A stretch of DNA of 32,000 bases from NCBI RefSeq assembly GCF_000007145.1, contig NC_003902.1:757436-789435 (forward strand). Reading direction: 5' to 3'. This DNA is from Xanthomonas campestris pv. campestris str. ATCC 33913 (GTDB lineage: Bacteria > Pseudomonadota > Gammaproteobacteria > Xanthomonadales > Xanthomonadaceae). The notes under the pieces are model-generated. The model made no database searches. It was given only the letters and a program-made list of their open reading frames with translations, and was not told where the DNA came from. The position numbers and the translations under genes are program-made. Below, piece by piece: positions 10,508 through 21,180 of the stretch (position 1 is the stretch's first letter; the number at the start of each line of letters is the position of its first letter).

Positions 10508-11208
10508 CCGATCGTGTGGCGCGCAGGCTTTGCGACGCCCTGGTGTGACTTGACTGATTGAAGGCTGGCCGCGCCGCTGCGTGGCGGGCGCGTATGTGCT
10601 GACGCTCGGCACCATCATCGAACGCGCATGCAGGTGTACGCGCTTGCACGGCATGCGTGTGTGCATGCGTCACAGCTGACGAAGCGAACGCAACGTGCGT
10701 GCGGCCACTTCTGCTCATCATGCGACGCACGCGCTGATTGATACCCCGCGGTATTGGACGTGTGTGCGCATGATCGATCACTGCGCTGCACATCGCACGG
10801 AAGTGCACGTCACCGGCAATGCGTTTTGCTGCGTTTGTGCGGTCTCCAGCGCTCAGTGATGTGTCCTGATCGCGCTGCTTGATGTGCCCTCTCACATCCG
10901 CGATCACACATCGTGCTTGCGCTGCTGCACGCCACCACGCGCTGCACGTGATGTTGCATTGCAGTGTCCTCGCTGCTGTCTCCGCGTGTCTGCGTCATCG
11001 CGTTTTGTCTTCTCTTGAATGTCCCGCAAGCGTTTGCGTGACAGCGCGTGCACATCGACACATCGCCTAGATACAACCGATTGCGATGCTCCTAGTATCC
11101 GTGTCGCGGAAACTGAAAAGTACACAGATGAAAAGTACGTTCCGCGCGCTCTAGTCGAGCGATGTGCCGCTGCGCGGTGCGTCGAACTTATCCGAGGGAG
11201 ACATCAAG

Positions 11209-12342
11209 ATGAAGCCGAAATTCTCAACGGCGGCCGCCGCGTCGCTGTTTGTCGGGTCGTTGCTGGTGATTGGCGTTGCCAGCGCCGATCCTGCACTGGA
11301 AGTTGCCACGACAGGCTGGGCCACGCAGAACGGTGGCACCAAGGGCGGCTCCAAAGCCGCGGCCGCCAATATCTACACGGTCAAGAACGCTGCCGAGCTG
11401 AAAGCTGCGTTGAAAGCCAGTGTTGGCAGCAACGGACGCATCATCAAGATCAGCGGCGTGATCGACGTCAGCGAAGGCAAGGCCTACAGCACCACGGCCG
11501 ACATGAAGAGCCGCGCGCGTCTGGACATTCCCACCAAGACCACCTTGATCGGCATCACCAGCAACGCGGAAATCCGCGAAGGCTACATGTACGTCAAGGC
11601 GAACGACGTCATCATCCGCAACATCACCATCGAAAATCCGTGGGATCCGCAGCCGGTCTGGGATCCGGACGATGGCAGCGCGGGCAACTGGAACTCCGAA
11701 TACGACGGGTTGACCGTGGAAGGCGCCAGCAACGTGTGGGTGGACCACGTGACCTTCACCGATGGCCGCCGTACCGATGATCAGAACGGCACCGCCAACG
11801 GCCGCCCGAAGCAACACCACGATGGCGCGATGGACGTCAAGAAAGGCGCCAACTACGTGACCATTTCGTACTCGGTGTTCAAGCTGCACGAGAAGAACGA
11901 TTTGATCGGCTCCAGCGACAGCGCCTCCAGCACCGACAGCGGCAAGCTCAAGGTCACCATCCACAACACCATGTTCCAGGACATCGCCGCACGTGCGCCG
12001 CGTGTGCGCTTCGGTCAGGTGCACCTGTACAACAACTACCACGTCGGCAGCACCAGCAATAAGGTGTATCCGTTCTCGCATGCGCATGGTGTCGGCAAGG
12101 AATCGAAGATTTTTTCCGAGCGCAACGCATTCGAGATCAGTGGCGTGAGCAGCTGCGACAAGATCGCTGCCGACTACGGCGGCAGCGTGTACCGCGATCA
12201 GGGCTCGTTGCTCAACGGCAAGGCGCTTTCTTGCTCGTGGAATACCAACATCGGCTGGACGCCGCCGTATACCTACAACCTGCTGTCGGCCGACAAGGTC
12301 GCCGCCGACGTCAAGGCAAAAGCAGGTGCCGGAAAGCTGTAA
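11209..12342 (+). CDS. pel: Secreted pectate lyase, PL1 family (copy 1)
   Basis: 377 aa. GAGGGAG RBS. Signal peptide [28 protein letters not shown]1 hallmarks NVWVDHVTF and [17 protein letters not shown]. Confidence 0.92.
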
Positions 12343-12383: not shown

Positions 12384-12579
12384 ATGGGTTGCAGCTATGC
12401 CGAGGGTGCACGTGCAGCATAGCGAAAATATACTTTTAAATAATTTACATAACCGATAGCATCGGTCGTGTCCGCTAGGGGACTGGCCGATTCGGCCTGG
12501 GCGGATGCAGTGCTGTCACGGGGAGCGCGTCGCGCATGCGACGTGTCATTGCATCACTCATTCAAGAGAATTCAACACC

Positions 12580-13722
12580 ATGTCGACTGCATCGACAGTT
12601 GTGGGTCGTACGGTTGTGGGCGTCGTTCTGGGCGCTGCGTTGTTGTCGGGCACCGCGTATGCGGCAGACCCTGCACTGGAAGTGGCCACCACCGGCTGGG
12701 CCACCCAGAACGGCGGCACCAAGGGAGGCTCCAAGGCGGCGGCGGCAGACATTTACACCGTCACCAACGCGGCCCAGCTCAAGGCGGCCTTGAAGGCCAA
12801 GGCCGGCAGCAACGGCCGCATCATCAAGATCAAGGGTGTCATCGACATCAGCGAAGGCAAGGCCTACACCAAGACCTCGGACATGAAGAGCCGTGGTCGC
12901 CTGGATGTGCCGACCAAGACCAGCCTGATCGGCGTCGGCACCAATGCCGAAATCCGCGAAGGCTTTTTCTACGTCAAGGCCAACGACGTCATTGTGCGCA
13001 ATCTCACCATCGAGAATCCGTGGGATCCGGAGCCGGTGTGGGATGCCGACGACGGCGATGCAGGCAACTGGAACTCCGAATACGACGGGTTGACCGTGGA
13101 AGGCGCCAGCAACGTGTGGGTGGACCATGTGACCTTCACCGACGGCCGCCGCACCGATGATCAGAACGGCACCGCCAACGGCCGCCCCAAGCAGCATCAC
13201 GATGGTGCGATGGACGTCAAGAAGGGCGCCAACTACGTGACCATTTCGTATTCGGTGTTCAAGTCGCACGAGAAGAACAGCCTGATCGGCTCCAGCGACA
13301 GTGCATCGAGCACCGACTCCGGCAAGCTCAAGGTCACCATCCACAACACCTTGTTCCAGGACATTGCCGCACGTGCGCCGCGCGTACGCTTCGGCCAGGT
13401 GCATCTGTACAACAACTACCACCTCGGCAGCACCAGCAATAAGGTGTACCCGTTCTCGCATGCGCATGGCGTGGGCAAGGAATCGAAGATCTTCTCCGAG
13501 AACAATGCCTTCGACATCAGCGGCGTGAGCAGCTGCACCAAGATTGCTGGCGACTACAAGGGCAGCGTGTACCGTGACCAGGGCTCGTTGATCAACGGCA
13601 AGGCACTGACCTGCAGCTGGAACAGCAACATCGGCTGGAAGCCGCCGTATACCTACAACATCCTGCCGGCCAACAAGGTGGCAGCGGACGTCAAGGCCAA
13701 GGCTGGCGCCGGCAAGCTGTAA
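12580..13722 (+). CDS. pel: Secreted pectate lyase, PL1 family (copy 2, tandem paralog)
   Basis: 380 aa. Signal peptide [28 protein letters not shown]. The mature region is collinear with and highly similar to copy 1, with the same PL1 motifs. Confidence 0.92.
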
Positions 13723-13802: not shown

Positions 13803-14267
13803 CGTTGTGTGCAATGGCGTGTGTGCTGTGCCGATGGCCTGCGTGGCAGGCCGCGCAGCGTGGGTGACAAGGCCGACCCGGATGCTCGTTTAACGACGCG
13901 CACGGCCTGGCGATTCAGTCGGCGCTGCTGTCGGAGCACGACGTGTTCCGGATCGGTGGGACCCGTGGTTGCAGGGATGGAGTGCAGGGCATCGGTGGCC
14001 GCACCGATCTCGATCGCGTGGAGCAGATCAACGGCGCGCGGATGGTGTGCATGCTCACTACCGCGATCGGTTGGAAGCCGCGTGATGCGTACAGTCGGTT
14101 GCCGAGCACGGCCGTGGCTGCGGCGGTGCTGGCGTATAGGGGCGCCGGAGGACCTTAGACCGGCTAACAAAACGTCGCGTCCGCCTGGCGCCTGCGCAGT
14201 CGTTGTGATCGCTGATTTTAACCGGTAAGTGCCGCAGCCCAATGGCTGCGGACAGTGCATGCATCAA

Positions 14268-14293
14268 ACGCCTGCGCCATCTGGCGCAGGCGT
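14268..14293 (-). terminator. Probable valS terminator hairpin
   Basis: acgcctgcgcc-atct-ggcgcaggcgt: an 11-bp stem 8 nt downstream of the valS stop. Minus-strand tail is ttgatgcatg. Confidence 0.5.
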
Positions 14294-14300
14294 CGTTGCT

Positions 14301-17135
<2,835 letters not shown>

Positions 17136-17248
17136 GGTGGAATCAAAAGGAGACTGGAAATTTGAATGATCGAAGCGGCGCTAGTTAGCACCAGAATGCA
17201 GTTTTTTTCGTTTTTCAGAGATGGGAAGTAAGGTAATTGGAAAATCTG

Positions 17249-17914
17249 TCAGTGATTCATTGCGCCATAAGCTTGTGTCAGCTTACGCAGTCCATCGCGA
17301 AACTTACAGAAGCTTGGAGACTGATTGAGCTCTACATCCATCTTGGGGCAGATATGGTCGGCCCATGCATGCTTGACCTCGCCAGGTAGCGGCCAGCCAG
17401 CTTTCATGATGGCTGCAGATCCGCCAGGGTGAACTGCGTCCGCCAAGAGCTCCCAGGTTCCACAGATGCTGTCCTGCTGGTAGCCCGAAAGTATTTCTTT
17501 TCTTGCTTTTGGATAGGCAGCGAGCACAGCTGGCTTGTCACCCAGGAACCAGGATTCCATTTCCTCGATCGCGAGGCGAAAAAGAGTCTTCGGCGCCGGA
17601 TTGCACCGCTGCAGCACGGCTTTCAAATCGGCCAGGAAAGTAGCGCAGTCGCGTCGATCACTATCTAAGACAACAACTACTGCGTCTACGCCTTGCGTCC
17701 TGCCGTACCCGCTGAGGAGTCTGGGAAGCTGGTTCAATAATGCGCGCTTCGCAGGGTCTGCAGTAGTCGAAAGGCCGGCTGGTAGTCGTCCGATTCCTTT
17801 GTAGGGGTGGATGCGCCACGTATGCGGTTCTCCATGGAGCCCGATGACGGCTGGCAGCAGCATGCTCACCACCTTGGCGCCAGAACTGTCTTCCACAAGG
17901 ACTTCAATATGCAT
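17249..17914 (-). CDS. DUF4276-like small protein with TOPRIM-type acidic signature (putative nuclease effector)
   Basis: 221 aa from ATG 17914, 2 nt after the ATPase stop. MHIEVLVEDSSG (Glu8), VVVVLDSDRRD (Asp84-x-Asp86), AIEEMESWFLGD. No signal peptide or TM segment. Confidence 0.7.
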   Translation of the reverse strand: MHIEVLVEDSSGAKVVSMLLPAVIGLHGEPHTWRIHPYKGIGRLPAGLSTTADPAKRALLNQLPRLLSGYGRTQGVDAVVVVLDSDRRDCATFLADLKAVLQRCNPAPKTLFRLAIEEMESWFLGDKPAVLAAYPKARKEILSGYQQDSICGTWELLADAVHPGGSAAIMKAGWPLPGEVKHAWADHICPKMDVELNQSPSFCKFRDGLRKLTQAYGAMNH

Positions 17915-17916
17915 AC

Positions 17917-19149
17917 TTATTTTGTATCCAAGTAGTCGCCATACCAAAGTCCACCGAGGGGCAATCCTTCTTCTACGAGATTACGCACCAAATCGATATC
18001 GGACGCCCGGCAAATGGTGGAAAATCCATTTTTTCCTTTCTCGAGTATCCAGACTTCCTTGGTTGAAAGTGCATCTACGAAATAGGGCTGGTGGGTGGTG
18101 ACGAAGATCTGTGGGGCGTTCTTCTTTCCCGTGGCATGGCTTCGCAGTTCACTCGCAAGTGAATCGAGTAATCGATGGTAAAGACCGTTCTCGGGCTCCT
18201 CGATGCAGATAAATGGTGGTGGTTCAGGATCTTCCATCAAGAGCAGGTATGCAAATATTTTCAGCGTTCCATCCGACATCTGGCCAGCATAGAAGGGATC
18301 GTTGAAGGCACCATCGTTGAATTGAAGAAGGACGCGTTTGTCTTGCGTCACAGTTGTTCTGATGCTGTGCACGCCAGGAATTTTTGCCGCGATACGGTCA
18401 AGGATTGTTTTGAAACGTTCTTTATGTTCGCGTTCCATATATTGAACGACGTTTCCGATGTTTTCGCCATGCACATCGAGATGTCGCTGAGCCCCGGCCG
18501 AAGGTATGGAGCGTGCAGAGTCCGGGTGGAAATAGGAGAGATGCCAGCCTTTCAGGAAGTCGCGGAAACGCTTGATGCGCGGATGCTCTTTCAATGTGCC
18601 AAGAGTTGCAATTCCCAACTGGCGCAAATCAGTGAGCTCCACATCCTCTTGAGCGCGATCTTCTTCGCCGCTGGATGTTTCCACCGCTTCTTCGCCAGCC
18701 CATACCTTTCCAACGCCGTGATGCAGGCGTAAGAATGGGTAGGGGCGGCCGTGTTTCTGTCCTTTGCGACGTTGCTTGAGAACCTCTGACTCGACGAATG
18801 GTCGCCCGCTGCTGTCCAGATTGATGGCCAGCTCGTAGGTGATGGGGCGTTCGCCCTTGGCTTCTCGGTAATAGATATCGAACCGTATGGATTCCTCAGT
18901 TCCCAAGGAGCGCATGCGCTCAAAGCCTCCGCGTTGTTTATCGTCGCAGGCCGATTCCACGTCCTTCGATAAGCAGTCGGCGACAAAGCCGAAGGCATCG
19001 AATAGCGTGCTTTTTCCGACACCGTTCTTGCCGATGACAACGGTGAAAGGAGTCAGCGGATCACCCTGCTGTTCAGCAGATAGGCGTCCAAGCGTGATAT
19101 CGCGCAGCGCGCGATAGTTGCGGACACGAAAGCCTTCGATTAATGCCAT
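17917..19149 (-). CDS. ABC/SMC-type (AAA_15/AAA_21-like) ATPase
   Basis: 410 aa. Walker A GKNGVGKST (aa 40-48), signature-like QMSDGT (aa 290-295), Walker B FICIEEPE (aa 313-320), H-loop TTHQ (aa 351-354). About 240 aa are inserted between the Walker A and signature motifs. Confidence 0.85.
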   Translation of the reverse strand: MALIEGFRVRNYRALRDITLGRLSAEQQGDPLTPFTVVIGKNGVGKSTLFDAFGFVADCLSKDVESACDDKQRGGFERMRSLGTEESIRFDIYYREAKGERPITYELAINLDSSGRPFVESEVLKQRRKGQKHGRPYPFLRLHHGVGKVWAGEEAVETSSGEEDRAQEDVELTDLRQLGIATLGTLKEHPRIKRFRDFLKGWHLSYFHPDSARSIPSAGAQRHLDVHGENIGNVVQYMEREHKERFKTILDRIAAKIPGVHSIRTTVTQDKRVLLQFNDGAFNDPFYAGQMSDGTLKIFAYLLLMEDPEPPPFICIEEPENGLYHRLLDSLASELRSHATGKKNAPQIFVTTHQPYFVDALSTKEVWILEKGKNGFSTICRASDIDLVRNLVEEGLPLGGLWYGDYLDTK

Positions 19150-19158
19150 ATCCTTCCC

Positions 19159-19584
19159 CTACATGTCGTATTTCGTGAGTTCCAGGCCCAGGGCCTTGTA
19201 CTGCTTCCAGCGTTCGCGCAGCGGTTCGCGGGCGGCGGGGTCGGCGGGCACCACTTCCAGCACGCGGTCGCAGGCGCCCAGGTACGGGTCGTCGCGCAGG
19301 TTGATCACCAGCGGGCGCGAGGGCGCGGCGAACTCGGGCGTTGCGATCAGCACCGGCGCCAGTTCGTCTTCCTCATCGGTGCCGGCGATCTGGTGCGGCA
19401 CATAGGCTTCGTCGTCGAACGCCCACAACAGGTCATCCAGCGCCTCGGCCTGTGCGGCATCGCGCGCCAGGATCAGCGTGGACAGGTTGGCATCGTTGGC
19501 CTTGCGCGCCAGCTCGCAGACCAGCCGCAGCGGTTCGTCGAGGAAGCGCGGTTTGGCGATCAGGTAAAAGTCGGCACGGGGCAT
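19159..19584 (-). CDS. holC: DNA polymerase III chi subunit
   Basis: 141 aa. MPRADFYLIAKPRFLDEPLRLVCELARKA...LWAFDDEAYVPHQ. Located immediately downstream of pepA, as in E. coli. Confidence 0.9.
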   Translation of the reverse strand: MPRADFYLIAKPRFLDEPLRLVCELARKANDANLSTLILARDAAQAEALDDLLWAFDDEAYVPHQIAGTDEEDELAPVLIATPEFAAPSRPLVINLRDDPYLGACDRVLEVVPADPAAREPLRERWKQYKALGLELTKYDM

Positions 19585-19586
19585 CA

Positions 19587-19707
19587 GGGCAGGGAATCGG
19601 GAGAGGAGAGTTGGGAATGGTCACGGCACCGCCGCGACCTCGAAGGTCGCGGCGGTGCCTGAAAGGAAAGGGCTTTCACGATTCCCTATTCCCGATTTTC
19701 AATTCCC
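19587..19707. repeat. Palindromic heptamer-repeat element (GGGAATC ... GATTCCC type) with central perfect hairpin
   Basis: Left arm gggcagggaatcgggagaggagagttgggaatgg. Centre ggcaccgccgcgacc-tcgaa-ggtcgcggcggtgcc, a 15-bp perfect stem at 19625-19659. Right arm attccctattcccgattttcaattccc, which overlaps the pepA stop and its last two codons. Confidence 0.65.
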
Positions 19708-21180
19708 ACCTTCGGCGCGGTCCAGCAACCACTGGGTCAGCAGGCCGACCGGGCGGCCGGTGGCCATGCCGCGCTTGCCTTCGTCGCTGGCCACGCCGGC
19801 GATGTCCAGATGCGCCCAGCGCTGGTTTTCGGTGAAGCGCGACAGGAAGCAGCCGGCGGTGATCGCGCCACCCCAGCGGCCGCCGATGTTGTAGACGTCG
19901 GCGAAGGTGGAATCCAGCAGGCCCTGGTATTCGTCCCACAGCGGCAGGCGCCAGGCGCGGTCGAACACGTGCTCGCCGGCGGCCAGCAGTTCATTGGCCA
20001 GATCGTCGTGCTTGCTCATCAATCCGGCGGTCTGGTGGCCCAGGGCCACCATGCAGGCGCCGGTCAGCGTGGCCACGTCCACCAGCGCTTCGGGGTTGAA
20101 GCGCTCGGCGTAGGTCAGCGCATCGCACAGGATCAGGCGGCCTTCGGCGTCGGTGTTGCCGACCTCGATGGTCTTGCCGGACATGCTGGTGATCACGTCC
20201 GAGGGACGATAGGCATTGCCGTCGATGGCGTTTTCCACCGCCGGCACCACCACCACCAGGTTGATCGGCAGCTCGGCCTTGACCGTGGCCACGAAGGTGC
20301 CGATGACGTTGGCGCCGCCGCACATGTCGTACTTCATTTCCTCGATGCCGCCCTGCGTCTTGAGGTTGACGCCACCGGTATCGAAGGTGATGCCCTTGCC
20401 GACCAGCACGTAGGGGCGCGCCTCGCCGCCGCCGTTCCACTTCAGCACGATCAGGCGCGGGCGGTTGGCCGAGCCACGCGCCACCGACAACAGCGAGCCC
20501 ATGCCCAGCGCTTCCATCTGCTGCTCGTCCAGGATCTCGGCCTCGGCGCCGGGGAACTTGCCGGCGAAGGCGGCCGCGGTCTCGGCCAGGTAGGCCGGGG
20601 TGCAGTAGTTCGGCGGCAGGTTGCCCAGCTCGCGGGCGAACTCCACGCCTTCGGCGGTGGCGATACCCACGGCCAGGGCGCGGGCGTCGTCGCCGGCGAT
20701 CGCCAGGGTGGTCAGGCCGGTGTCGTCGACCTTCTTCTTGCCCAGCGTGGCGGTGTAGCGGTAGGCGGCATGGTCGCTGACGATGACGGCCTGGCGGATG
20801 TTCCAGGCTGCGTCGCGTGCCTTGACGGGCAGTTCGGTCAGGGTGAGCAGGGCGGTGCCGATCGGGCCGGTCTTCAATGCGCGGGCCGCATCGCCGATGG
20901 CCTTGAGGTAGGGCGCCACGCCAAACTTGGCGGCATCGCCCAGGCCCACCACCAGCACGCGCGGGGCCTGCACGCCGGGCAGGTCATGCACCAGGCTGGT
21001 GGTGCCGGTCTTGGTGGCCACATCGCCCCGTGCCACCAGCGCCGTCAGGCGGCCCTGGCTGGCGCTGTCCAGCGCCTGGGCAGCGGGCGAGAGGGTCTTG
21101 TCGGCGAACGCGCCAACCACGATGCAGTCGACGTGGGCGCTTGCCGGCGCGTCTTGGTTCAGGGTGAATTGCAGGGCCAT
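19699..21180 (-). CDS. pepA: Leucyl aminopeptidase
   Basis: 493 aa. M17 family signature [14 protein letters not shown] and [10 protein letters not shown]. Confidence 0.97.

Follow-up and report, generated by a model that had tools for sequence, protein, structure and literature searches.

The window analysed in this work is a stretch of 32,000 nucleotides from Xanthomonas campestris pv. campestris str. ATCC 33913 (NC_003902.1, positions 757,436 to 789,435 of the forward strand), and all coordinates below are positions within that window. An inserted islet with two genes on the minus strand lies between holC (DNA polymerase III chi) and valS (valyl-tRNA synthetase). The upstream gene encodes an ATP-binding cassette (ABC) type ATPase and the downstream gene encodes a small protein of 221 residues. 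The pair is almost certainly HEC-01 (Hma-embedded candidate 01), which has been reported as an ABC ATPase together with a TOPRIM protein embedded in Hma systems (Payne et al., bioRxiv 10.1101/2024.01.29.577857). The small subunit very probably has a TOPRIM fold, as an initial annotation of this DNA had proposed from a Glu/DxD signature. The features of the islet are listed below.

17136..19158, no strand: inserted islet of about 2.0 kb, identified from composition and the empty-site comparison.
17249..17914, minus strand: HEC-01B, DUF4276 protein of 221 residues, predicted TOPRIM-fold nuclease subunit (PADLOC, homologue alignment, AlphaFold2), with the motifs E8, G40/G42, D84-x-D86, E118-x-E120, and K181.
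17915..17916, minus strand: two-base spacer TAA-GT-ATG from the ATPase stop to the small-gene start, from the sequence.
17917..19149, minus strand: HEC-01A, ABC-type ATPase of 410 residues (Pfam AAA_21/AAA_15), identified from Pfam, PADLOC, and its motifs.
19150..19158, minus strand: nine-base junction TAG-GGGAAGGAT-ATG from the holC stop to the ATPase start, from the sequence.

The small gene and its ATPase partner

The minus strand of 17249-17914 consists of 221 codons and a stop codon, and direct translation gives a product with the N-terminus MHIEVLVEDSSG. The plus-strand reading of the same interval is a frame riddled with stops. Judged from the sequence, the true start of the small gene is the ATG at 17914, because homologues open with MH.E and because a longer TTG-initiated open reading frame (ORF, 17249-17947) runs into the 3' end of the ATPase gene. 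In the translation, D84 and D86 are located within VVVVLDSDRRD, while E117, E118, and E120 are located within AIEEMESWFLGD. E8, D84/D86, and the third acidic cluster are therefore at the positions that had been given in the initial annotation, with a spacing of 76 residues between E8 and D84.

The small protein matches the PADLOC profile HEC-01B (PDLC04205) at 5.7e-97, where residues 1-211 are aligned on positions 1-211 of the 213 profile positions. Pfam DUF4276 is matched by all 70 homologues that were aligned (best 1.3e-14), and the precomputed annotations of its close homologues include PF14103. No NCBIfam model matches the small protein, and the PHROGs search returned nothing useful for it.

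The ATPase exhibits Walker A GKNGVGKST (residues 40-48), a signature-like QMSDGT (about 291), Walker B FICIEEPE (313-320), and an H-loop TTHQ (about 351). The ATPase matches Pfam AAA_21 at 9.7e-37 and the PADLOC profile HEC-01A (PDLC04182) at 1.8e-191. Its lesser PADLOC matches are AriA (1.9e-33), AbiLi (2e-24), and mad3 (2.3e-21). The match to NCBIfam MAD3 is partial (4.7e-30, 105 bits against a cut-off of 420). The phmmer search of the ATPase against PDB chains gave no match at E <= 0.001.

Both genes probably form one operon with translational coupling across the two-base spacer, and an equally tight junction between the ATPase and the small gene is found in other loci. The linkage was surveyed in 80 genome loci that were retrieved with the DUF4276 profile. 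The ATPase homology ends a few bases before the small-gene start, on the same strand, in all 80 loci, and a full-length ATPase was matched in 77. The records of these loci are labelled Pseudomonadota, Acidobacteriota, Chloroflexota, cyanobacteria, Planctomycetia, and one archaeal metagenome-assembled genome (MAG). The amino-acid identity among Xanthomonas, Variovorax, and Pseudomonas is 86-91% for the ATPase versus 70-79% for the small protein. The small subunit is the faster-evolving partner of the pair.

TOPRIM motifs and predicted fold of HEC-01B

The phmmer search of 1.84 billion cluster representatives identified 855 relatives of the small protein at E <= 0.001. Residue conservation was assessed in an alignment of 70 full-length homologues (32-54% identity, mean column identity of 31%). 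Invariance in this alignment is confined to six columns (E8, D84, D86, E120, W122, and K181). S11, G40, G42, E118, and D126 are kept in at least 90% of the homologues. The acidic signature, as read from the alignment, exceeds chance because four of the six invariant columns coincide with the six acidic residues that had been named beforehand (hypergeometric P = 2.3e-6). The conservation expected of Glu8 and Asp84/86 was thus borne out in divergent homologues, and E120 of the third acidic cluster is likewise invariant.

The AlphaFold2 model of the small protein that was predicted from 70 divergent sequences has a pLDDT score (predicted local distance difference test) of 96.3 and a predicted template modelling (pTM) score of 0.92. 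This model replaced an earlier AlphaFold2 prediction from 40 close homologues with identities of 69% or more, where the pLDDT was 70, strand 4 was missed, and Foldseek was uninformative. The strands (b) and helices (a) of the final model are b1 (2-7), a1 (10-24), b2 (32-37), a2 (59-72), b3 (78-84), a3 (90-102), and b4 (110-115). The order b-a-b-a-b-a-b is the TOPRIM element order of the alpha/beta (Rossmann-like) type. Residues 120-219 form an all-helical C-terminal domain. Based on the model, residues 1 to about 116 would constitute the N-terminal TOPRIM domain, with the helical C-terminal domain following it.

The sheet of the TOPRIM superfamily has four parallel strands in the order 2-1-3-4 between helices. 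The three TOPRIM motifs have been reported as Glu beside b1, Gly after b2, and DxD beside b3 (Schiltz et al., PMC6755086). In the model, E8 is located directly after b1, G40 and G42 are located after b2, D84 closes b3, and D86 is located in the following loop. The helix that follows b4 opens with E118-x-E120, and the invariant K181 is inside the helical domain. The confident model therefore exhibits the Rossmann-like alpha/beta order with the TOPRIM motifs at the expected elements, in agreement with the fold that had been proposed. The catalytic set of OLD consists of E400, D455/D457, T506/E508, and K562, where metal B is held by T506/E508, which belong to the first helix beyond the core, while K562 is in the helical domain and faces the scissile phosphate (PMC6755086). 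This set of two metals plus a lysine appears to have counterparts in the modelled small protein in the same order, and the correspondence is one of motif order only.

The direct fold comparisons with known TOPRIM proteins are weak but point in one direction. In the Foldseek search of the viral library, the highest probability was obtained for a viral RloB-like protein (E 0.034, probability 0.84, template modelling (TM) scores 0.40/0.42), followed in the list by DnaG-like primases and topoisomerases. The first-ranked PDB structure is M. tuberculosis topoisomerase I (E 0.14), and the remainder are flavodoxin-like folds. Secondary Pfam matches among the 70 homologues are to RloB (four members, best 6.6e-4), OLD-like_TOPRIM (four members, best 2.8e-3), OLD-like_TOPRIM_1 (one member), and DUF3226 (five members). 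The members that match RloB or OLD-TOPRIM are not among the ten most divergent homologues in the Pfam scan. PADLOC RT-Toprim_I-C is also matched by homologues at 1.9e-4 and 4.3e-4, with one member each.

The DUF4276 profile was further compared with class 1 OLD proteins. The class 1 OLD alignment of 115 sequences was seeded with full-length P2 Old and its TOPRIM region was cut out; the C-terminal region of P2 Old alone as the database query returned only five fragments. The hhalign comparison of the DUF4276 profile with the class 1 OLD TOPRIM region gave a score of 25.8 (P 0.0035), where LVED-S is paired with LvEGKTE at the b1-Glu motif and the alignment runs on through b2. Eight controls with reversed or unrelated profiles gave scores of 11.5-16.3 (P 0.14-0.48).

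Several results from the same searches count against a TOPRIM assignment. The Foldseek searches of the good model against PDB and BFVD gave nothing at E <= 0.001, the 50 best PDB matches include no structure of OLD, GajA, or AriB, and the scores of generic flavodoxin-like folds are close to that of the first-ranked topoisomerase. The hidden Markov model (HMM) searches of PDB sequences gave chance-level matches only (Msh2 and designed proteins) with both profiles. The hhalign probability is just 9% over 46 columns with DxD outside the alignment, and the DxD motifs were never aligned against the single P2 Old sequence or in global or low maximum accuracy (MAC) modes. The small protein itself matches Pfam DUF4276 (PF14103) at 23.1 bits (E 9.7e-5, residues 7-209 on 1-191 of 192), while the cut-off is 30.2 bits. 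The Foldseek result was not read as negative because the TOPRIM core is short, at about 115 residues, and its three-layer fold is generic.

Taken together, the TOPRIM-like Glu/DxD reading is supported by the conservation, the model, the cross-family matches, and two publications that came to it independently. The initial annotation had also named OLD nucleases, AriB, and RloB/AbiLii as families that use this fold. The TOPRIM-type signature held for the small protein, but the small protein is not a member of any of those families at the sequence level, where none of their models matches it.

Origin of the islet and its neighbourhoods

The islet has a guanine-cytosine (GC) content of 0.527. The GC content at third codon positions (GC3) of its genes is 0.56-0.58 compared to 0.85-0.91 in the flanking valS, holC, and pepA. 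The GC3 far below the flanks indicates, at the level of sequence composition, that the islet was acquired horizontally. The locus labelled L001 is 99.8% identical to the window over the 2.8 kb that was compared, and the closest protein match, at 99% identity, carries the name X. campestris pv. campestris. The empty site is found in the loci labelled L002 and L004, where the holC-valS spacer is 108 bp and the homology to the window stops at 19161 and 17126. The holC gene of the empty-site Xanthomonas genomes encodes an identical protein. Neither direct repeats at its flanks nor a tRNA gene or a neighbouring mobility gene could be found for the islet.

The small gene ends 113 bp short of valS. 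On the other side, the nine-base junction between holC and the ATPase gene contains a purine-rich stretch that resembles a ribosome-binding site for the ATPase. No sigma-70-like promoter and no intrinsic terminator were found in 16900-19800. From this arrangement, the pair is probably co-transcribed with holC, because the junction is too short for a separate promoter.

The holC-valS site is occupied by the pair in X. campestris, X. axonopodis, X. oryzae, and X. translucens. The GC3 of the islet differs sharply by species, with 0.56-0.58 in X. campestris, 0.44-0.48 in X. oryzae, and 0.75-0.79 in X. translucens. The nucleotide identity of the ATPase gene to that of X. campestris is 83.5% in X. 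oryzae, 76.2% in X. translucens, and 74.5% in Variovorax. These differences in GC3 and identity may denote a single ancient acquisition or a hotspot at which alleles have been replaced repeatedly. It is conceivable, though doubtful, that the pair in Xanthomonas is a long-retained operon module (pepA-holC-[pair]-valS) and not an ordinary transient defence islet, which would be transcribed with essential replication and translation genes while it keeps its foreign codon composition. Conserved housekeeping operons would then be recombination-anchored slots in which the alleles of a mini defence system are exchanged time and again, or the module would have acquired a role for the host, for example as a TOPRIM RNase that processes RNA or tRNA. 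A new HEC-01 substrate or trigger may also exist.

The holC DNA (19161-19584) is 97.6% identical to that of L002 and L004, while pepA/lptFG and valS are only 87-89% identical. The holC tract may be a recombination tract that ends exactly at the islet boundary. Related Xanthomonas genomes have an extra ORF of 118-120 residues between pepA and holC (L002:4631-4993 and L105:3974-4330). The pepA-holC gap of the window (19585-19698, 114 bp) is too small for that ORF.

The flanks of the 80 loci were surveyed with a Pfam scan of about 280 flanking ORFs. The scan identified 86 different Pfam families upstream and 89 downstream, which are mostly unrelated housekeeping genes. Close homologues of the pair in P. 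aeruginosa and in a Desulfobulbus MAG are located immediately downstream of a large N6_N4 methylase gene, with a ResIII helicase gene further upstream, which is a setting of the Hma type. Hma-type flanks (ResIII helicase, N6_N4 methylase, and UvrD) were identified with tblastn in about six of the 80 genome loci and not in the window.

Other neighbours recur in a few loci. Genes of thiamine pyrophosphate (TPP) enzymes are found upstream (four ORFs) and ketol-acid reductoisomerase genes are found downstream (three ORFs), which may be an insertion in an ilv cluster. Wadjet JetD (three), N6_N4 methylase (three), and a tandem second AAA_21 and DUF4276 pair (two to three) also recur. Aminoacyl-tRNA synthetase genes are found beside the pair as valS in the window (14301-17135), valS in a gammaproteobacterial MAG (L050:164-3067), and glnS, a class Ic synthetase gene, in Variovorax (L107:4751-6565). 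A preferential link to aminoacyl-tRNA synthetase genes was considered and rejected; about four such neighbours are found among the flanking ORFs, which is probably coincidence.

Two further features of the window lie outside the islet. Two very similar, tandem paralogous ORFs of 392 and 405 residues are located at 11164-12342 and 12505-13722 on the plus strand, and we presume that they resemble secreted pectate lyases. An ORF of 978 residues (14229-17165, plus strand) is antisense to valS. Similar long shadow ORFs are found opposite pepA and other genes, and the 978-residue ORF is read as a high-GC artefact and not as a gene.

Proposed function and comparison with known systems

We consider it probable that the pair is a TOPRIM nuclease under the control of an ATPase, similar in kind to OLD, PARIS, and AbiL and divided over two genes, which defends against phages or other mobile DNA. 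The ATPase would sense a sign of phage infection and would use ATP binding or hydrolysis to control the nuclease, which would be released, assembled, or loaded onto its substrate. In the nuclease, the ligands of metal A would be E8, D84, and D86, those of metal B would be E118 and E120, and K181 would face the scissile phosphate. The nuclease would then cut nucleic acid by two-metal catalysis, so that phage replication or the infected cell would be stopped. The substrate may be DNA as for OLD and GajA or tRNA as for AriB. The prediction that the small subunit is the active metal-dependent nuclease effector, which is the role that the initial annotation had given it, is likely to be correct. 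We lean towards anti-phage or anti-mobile-element defence as the putative function of the pair.

The published findings on HEC-01 and DUF4276 bear on both parts of this proposal. The TOPRIM protein of HEC-01 has been reported to have structural similarity to the BpOLD TOPRIM domain with the metal-binding site in common (bioRxiv 10.1101/2024.01.29.577857). The Menshen comparative study placed DUF4276 and RloB in the Toprim superfamily and identified Mad4 of MADS as a DUF4276 homologue (PMC12065111). Other observations weigh on the opposite side for the function. A HEC-01 representative in E. coli gave no defence against any tested phage (bioRxiv 10.1101/2024.01.29.577857). No biochemistry of any DUF4276 protein was found in the searchable literature. 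Most of the 80 loci, including the window, are located among housekeeping genes and not in recognisable defence islands, and a search of 2.9 million viral contigs identified only six relatives.

Two other readings concern what the small protein is. It is highly unlikely that its fold is an alpha/beta domain of the generic flavodoxin-like or Rossmann-like type without relation to TOPRIM, where the acidic residues serve other chemistry. The low hhalign probability is consistent with such a fold, and so are the top Foldseek matches, where flavodoxins, lumazine synthases, Rab GTPases, and LacI-type domains predominate with scores near those of TOPRIM proteins. However, all three TOPRIM motifs are conserved at the right elements, and the recurring cross-family matches, DUF3226 aside, involve families that bear TOPRIM (RloB, OLD-like TOPRIM, and RT-Toprim). 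The partner is also the type of ATPase that accompanies TOPRIM in OLD, PARIS, and AbiL systems, and the two published structure-based analyses cited above both assign TOPRIM. A TOPRIM domain may also be used without cleavage, as in RecR. The small protein could accordingly be TOPRIM-like and yet be a metal-binding or nucleic-acid-binding adaptor or a regulator of the ATPase, with the ATPase or an unlinked partner as the effector. This is consistent with the lack of reported nuclease activity for DUF4276 proteins, with an ATPase that is more conserved than the small protein (the pattern expected of a faster-evolving specificity subunit), and with the helicases and methylases beside the pair in some genomes, which could supply the effector activity. 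Such a role appears unlikely, where the five invariant charged residues (E8, D84, D86, E120, and K181) match the OLD set by motif order and are hard to explain without catalysis, and where the pair is alone in most loci, including the window, with no other effector at hand.

The remaining readings accept the pair and differ on its purpose. A selfish addiction or toxin-antitoxin-like module, or a system aimed at plasmids and other mobile DNA instead of phages, would persist because losing it is harmful and not because it gives protection from phage. Such a purpose would agree with the HEC-01 test without phage protection, with the Pfam AAA_21 title 'putative AbiEii toxin, Type IV TA system', and with a compact, tightly coupled two-gene unit that is scattered among housekeeping genes of many phyla and rare on viral contigs. 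We regard this as improbable. In a second study, E. coli B was reported to be protected from one or more of the phages T4, T5, and T7 by a different HEC-01 representative (bioRxiv 10.1101/2024.09.26.614923), and the related systems of ABC ATPase and TOPRIM (OLD, Gabija, and PARIS) have been described as phage defences. The empty site in related Xanthomonas with an identical HolC protein also implies that loss or absence of the pair is tolerated. A housekeeping role tied to holC and valS, for example in RNase M5-type RNA processing or in repair linked to replication, has very little likelihood. The likely co-transcription with holC across the nine-base junction with no promoter or terminator detected, the occupied site in four Xanthomonas species, and the few other loci that adjoin aminoacyl-tRNA synthetase genes are in its favour. 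These are outweighed by the GC3 of the islet far below that of its flanks, the absence of the pair from related genomes with an identical HolC protein, the heterogeneous flanks of the 80 loci with only about four aminoacyl-tRNA synthetase neighbours, and the close homologues elsewhere that adjoin restriction-type methylase and helicase genes. The ATPase-controlled TOPRIM nuclease therefore remains the reading that we prefer.

The pair was compared with the known systems that combine an ATPase and a TOPRIM protein. MADS (the methylation-associated defence system, with Mad3 ATPase and Mad4) shares the DUF4276 homologue and the partial MAD3 match of the ATPase with the window pair. It differs in that the MAD3 score of the ATPase is under the cut-off and in that the islet has no methyltransferase or other mad genes, with holC and valS as its neighbours. 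AbiL (AbiLi and AbiLii/RloB) and RloA/RloB of type I restriction loci share the AbiLi match of the ATPase, and RloB is the family that is most often cross-matched by divergent DUF4276 members and that has the top Foldseek probability. The window protein, however, has no RloB/AbiLii match, and only four of the 70 homologues touch RloB weakly.

PARIS (AriA ABC ATPase and AriB DUF4435 TOPRIM nuclease) is the best-studied pair of ATPase and TOPRIM in phage defence (PMC11464382). The window ATPase matches AriA, but this match is far weaker than that to HEC-01A, and the searches of the small protein at E <= 1 gave neither AriB nor DUF4435. AriB is also larger (35 kDa compared to 221 residues), and PARIS is the only one of the two for which a target (tRNA) and a trigger (a phage protein) have been established. 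The OLD nucleases (P2 Old, BpOLD, and TsOLD) and Gabija GajA likewise combine an ABC-type ATPase (AAA_21/AAA_15) with TOPRIM. OLD and the small protein share the residue order, which starts with Glu and DxD, continues with an acidic pair directly behind strand 4, and ends with a helical-domain lysine, and they have weak profile similarity at the Glu motif. The ATPase and TOPRIM of OLD and GajA are fused in a single chain, whereas the window pair consists of two genes. The small protein has no Pfam OLD-like_TOPRIM match at E <= 1, and its b2-b3 connection is longer, with 76 residues from E to DxD compared to 55 in BpOLD.

The window pair agrees with HEC-01 in both proteins, in the order of ABC ATPase then DUF4276/TOPRIM, and in near-full-length HMM matches. 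It differs from the reported HEC-01 in that it is not Hma-embedded and is a lone two-gene islet in the pepA-holC-valS cluster. Motif reading alone recovered the correct fold assignment and added no new kind of system. The practical value of the locus is modest, as a clean stand-alone HEC-01 copy in a genetically tractable plant pathogen. The residues that have been pinpointed for mutagenesis are E8, D84, D86, E120, and K181 of the small protein and K46 (Walker A) and E317/E318 (Walker B) of the ATPase. The published defence data on HEC-01 conflict. The TOPRIM reading is correct but already published, and the pair is an already catalogued candidate anti-phage system.

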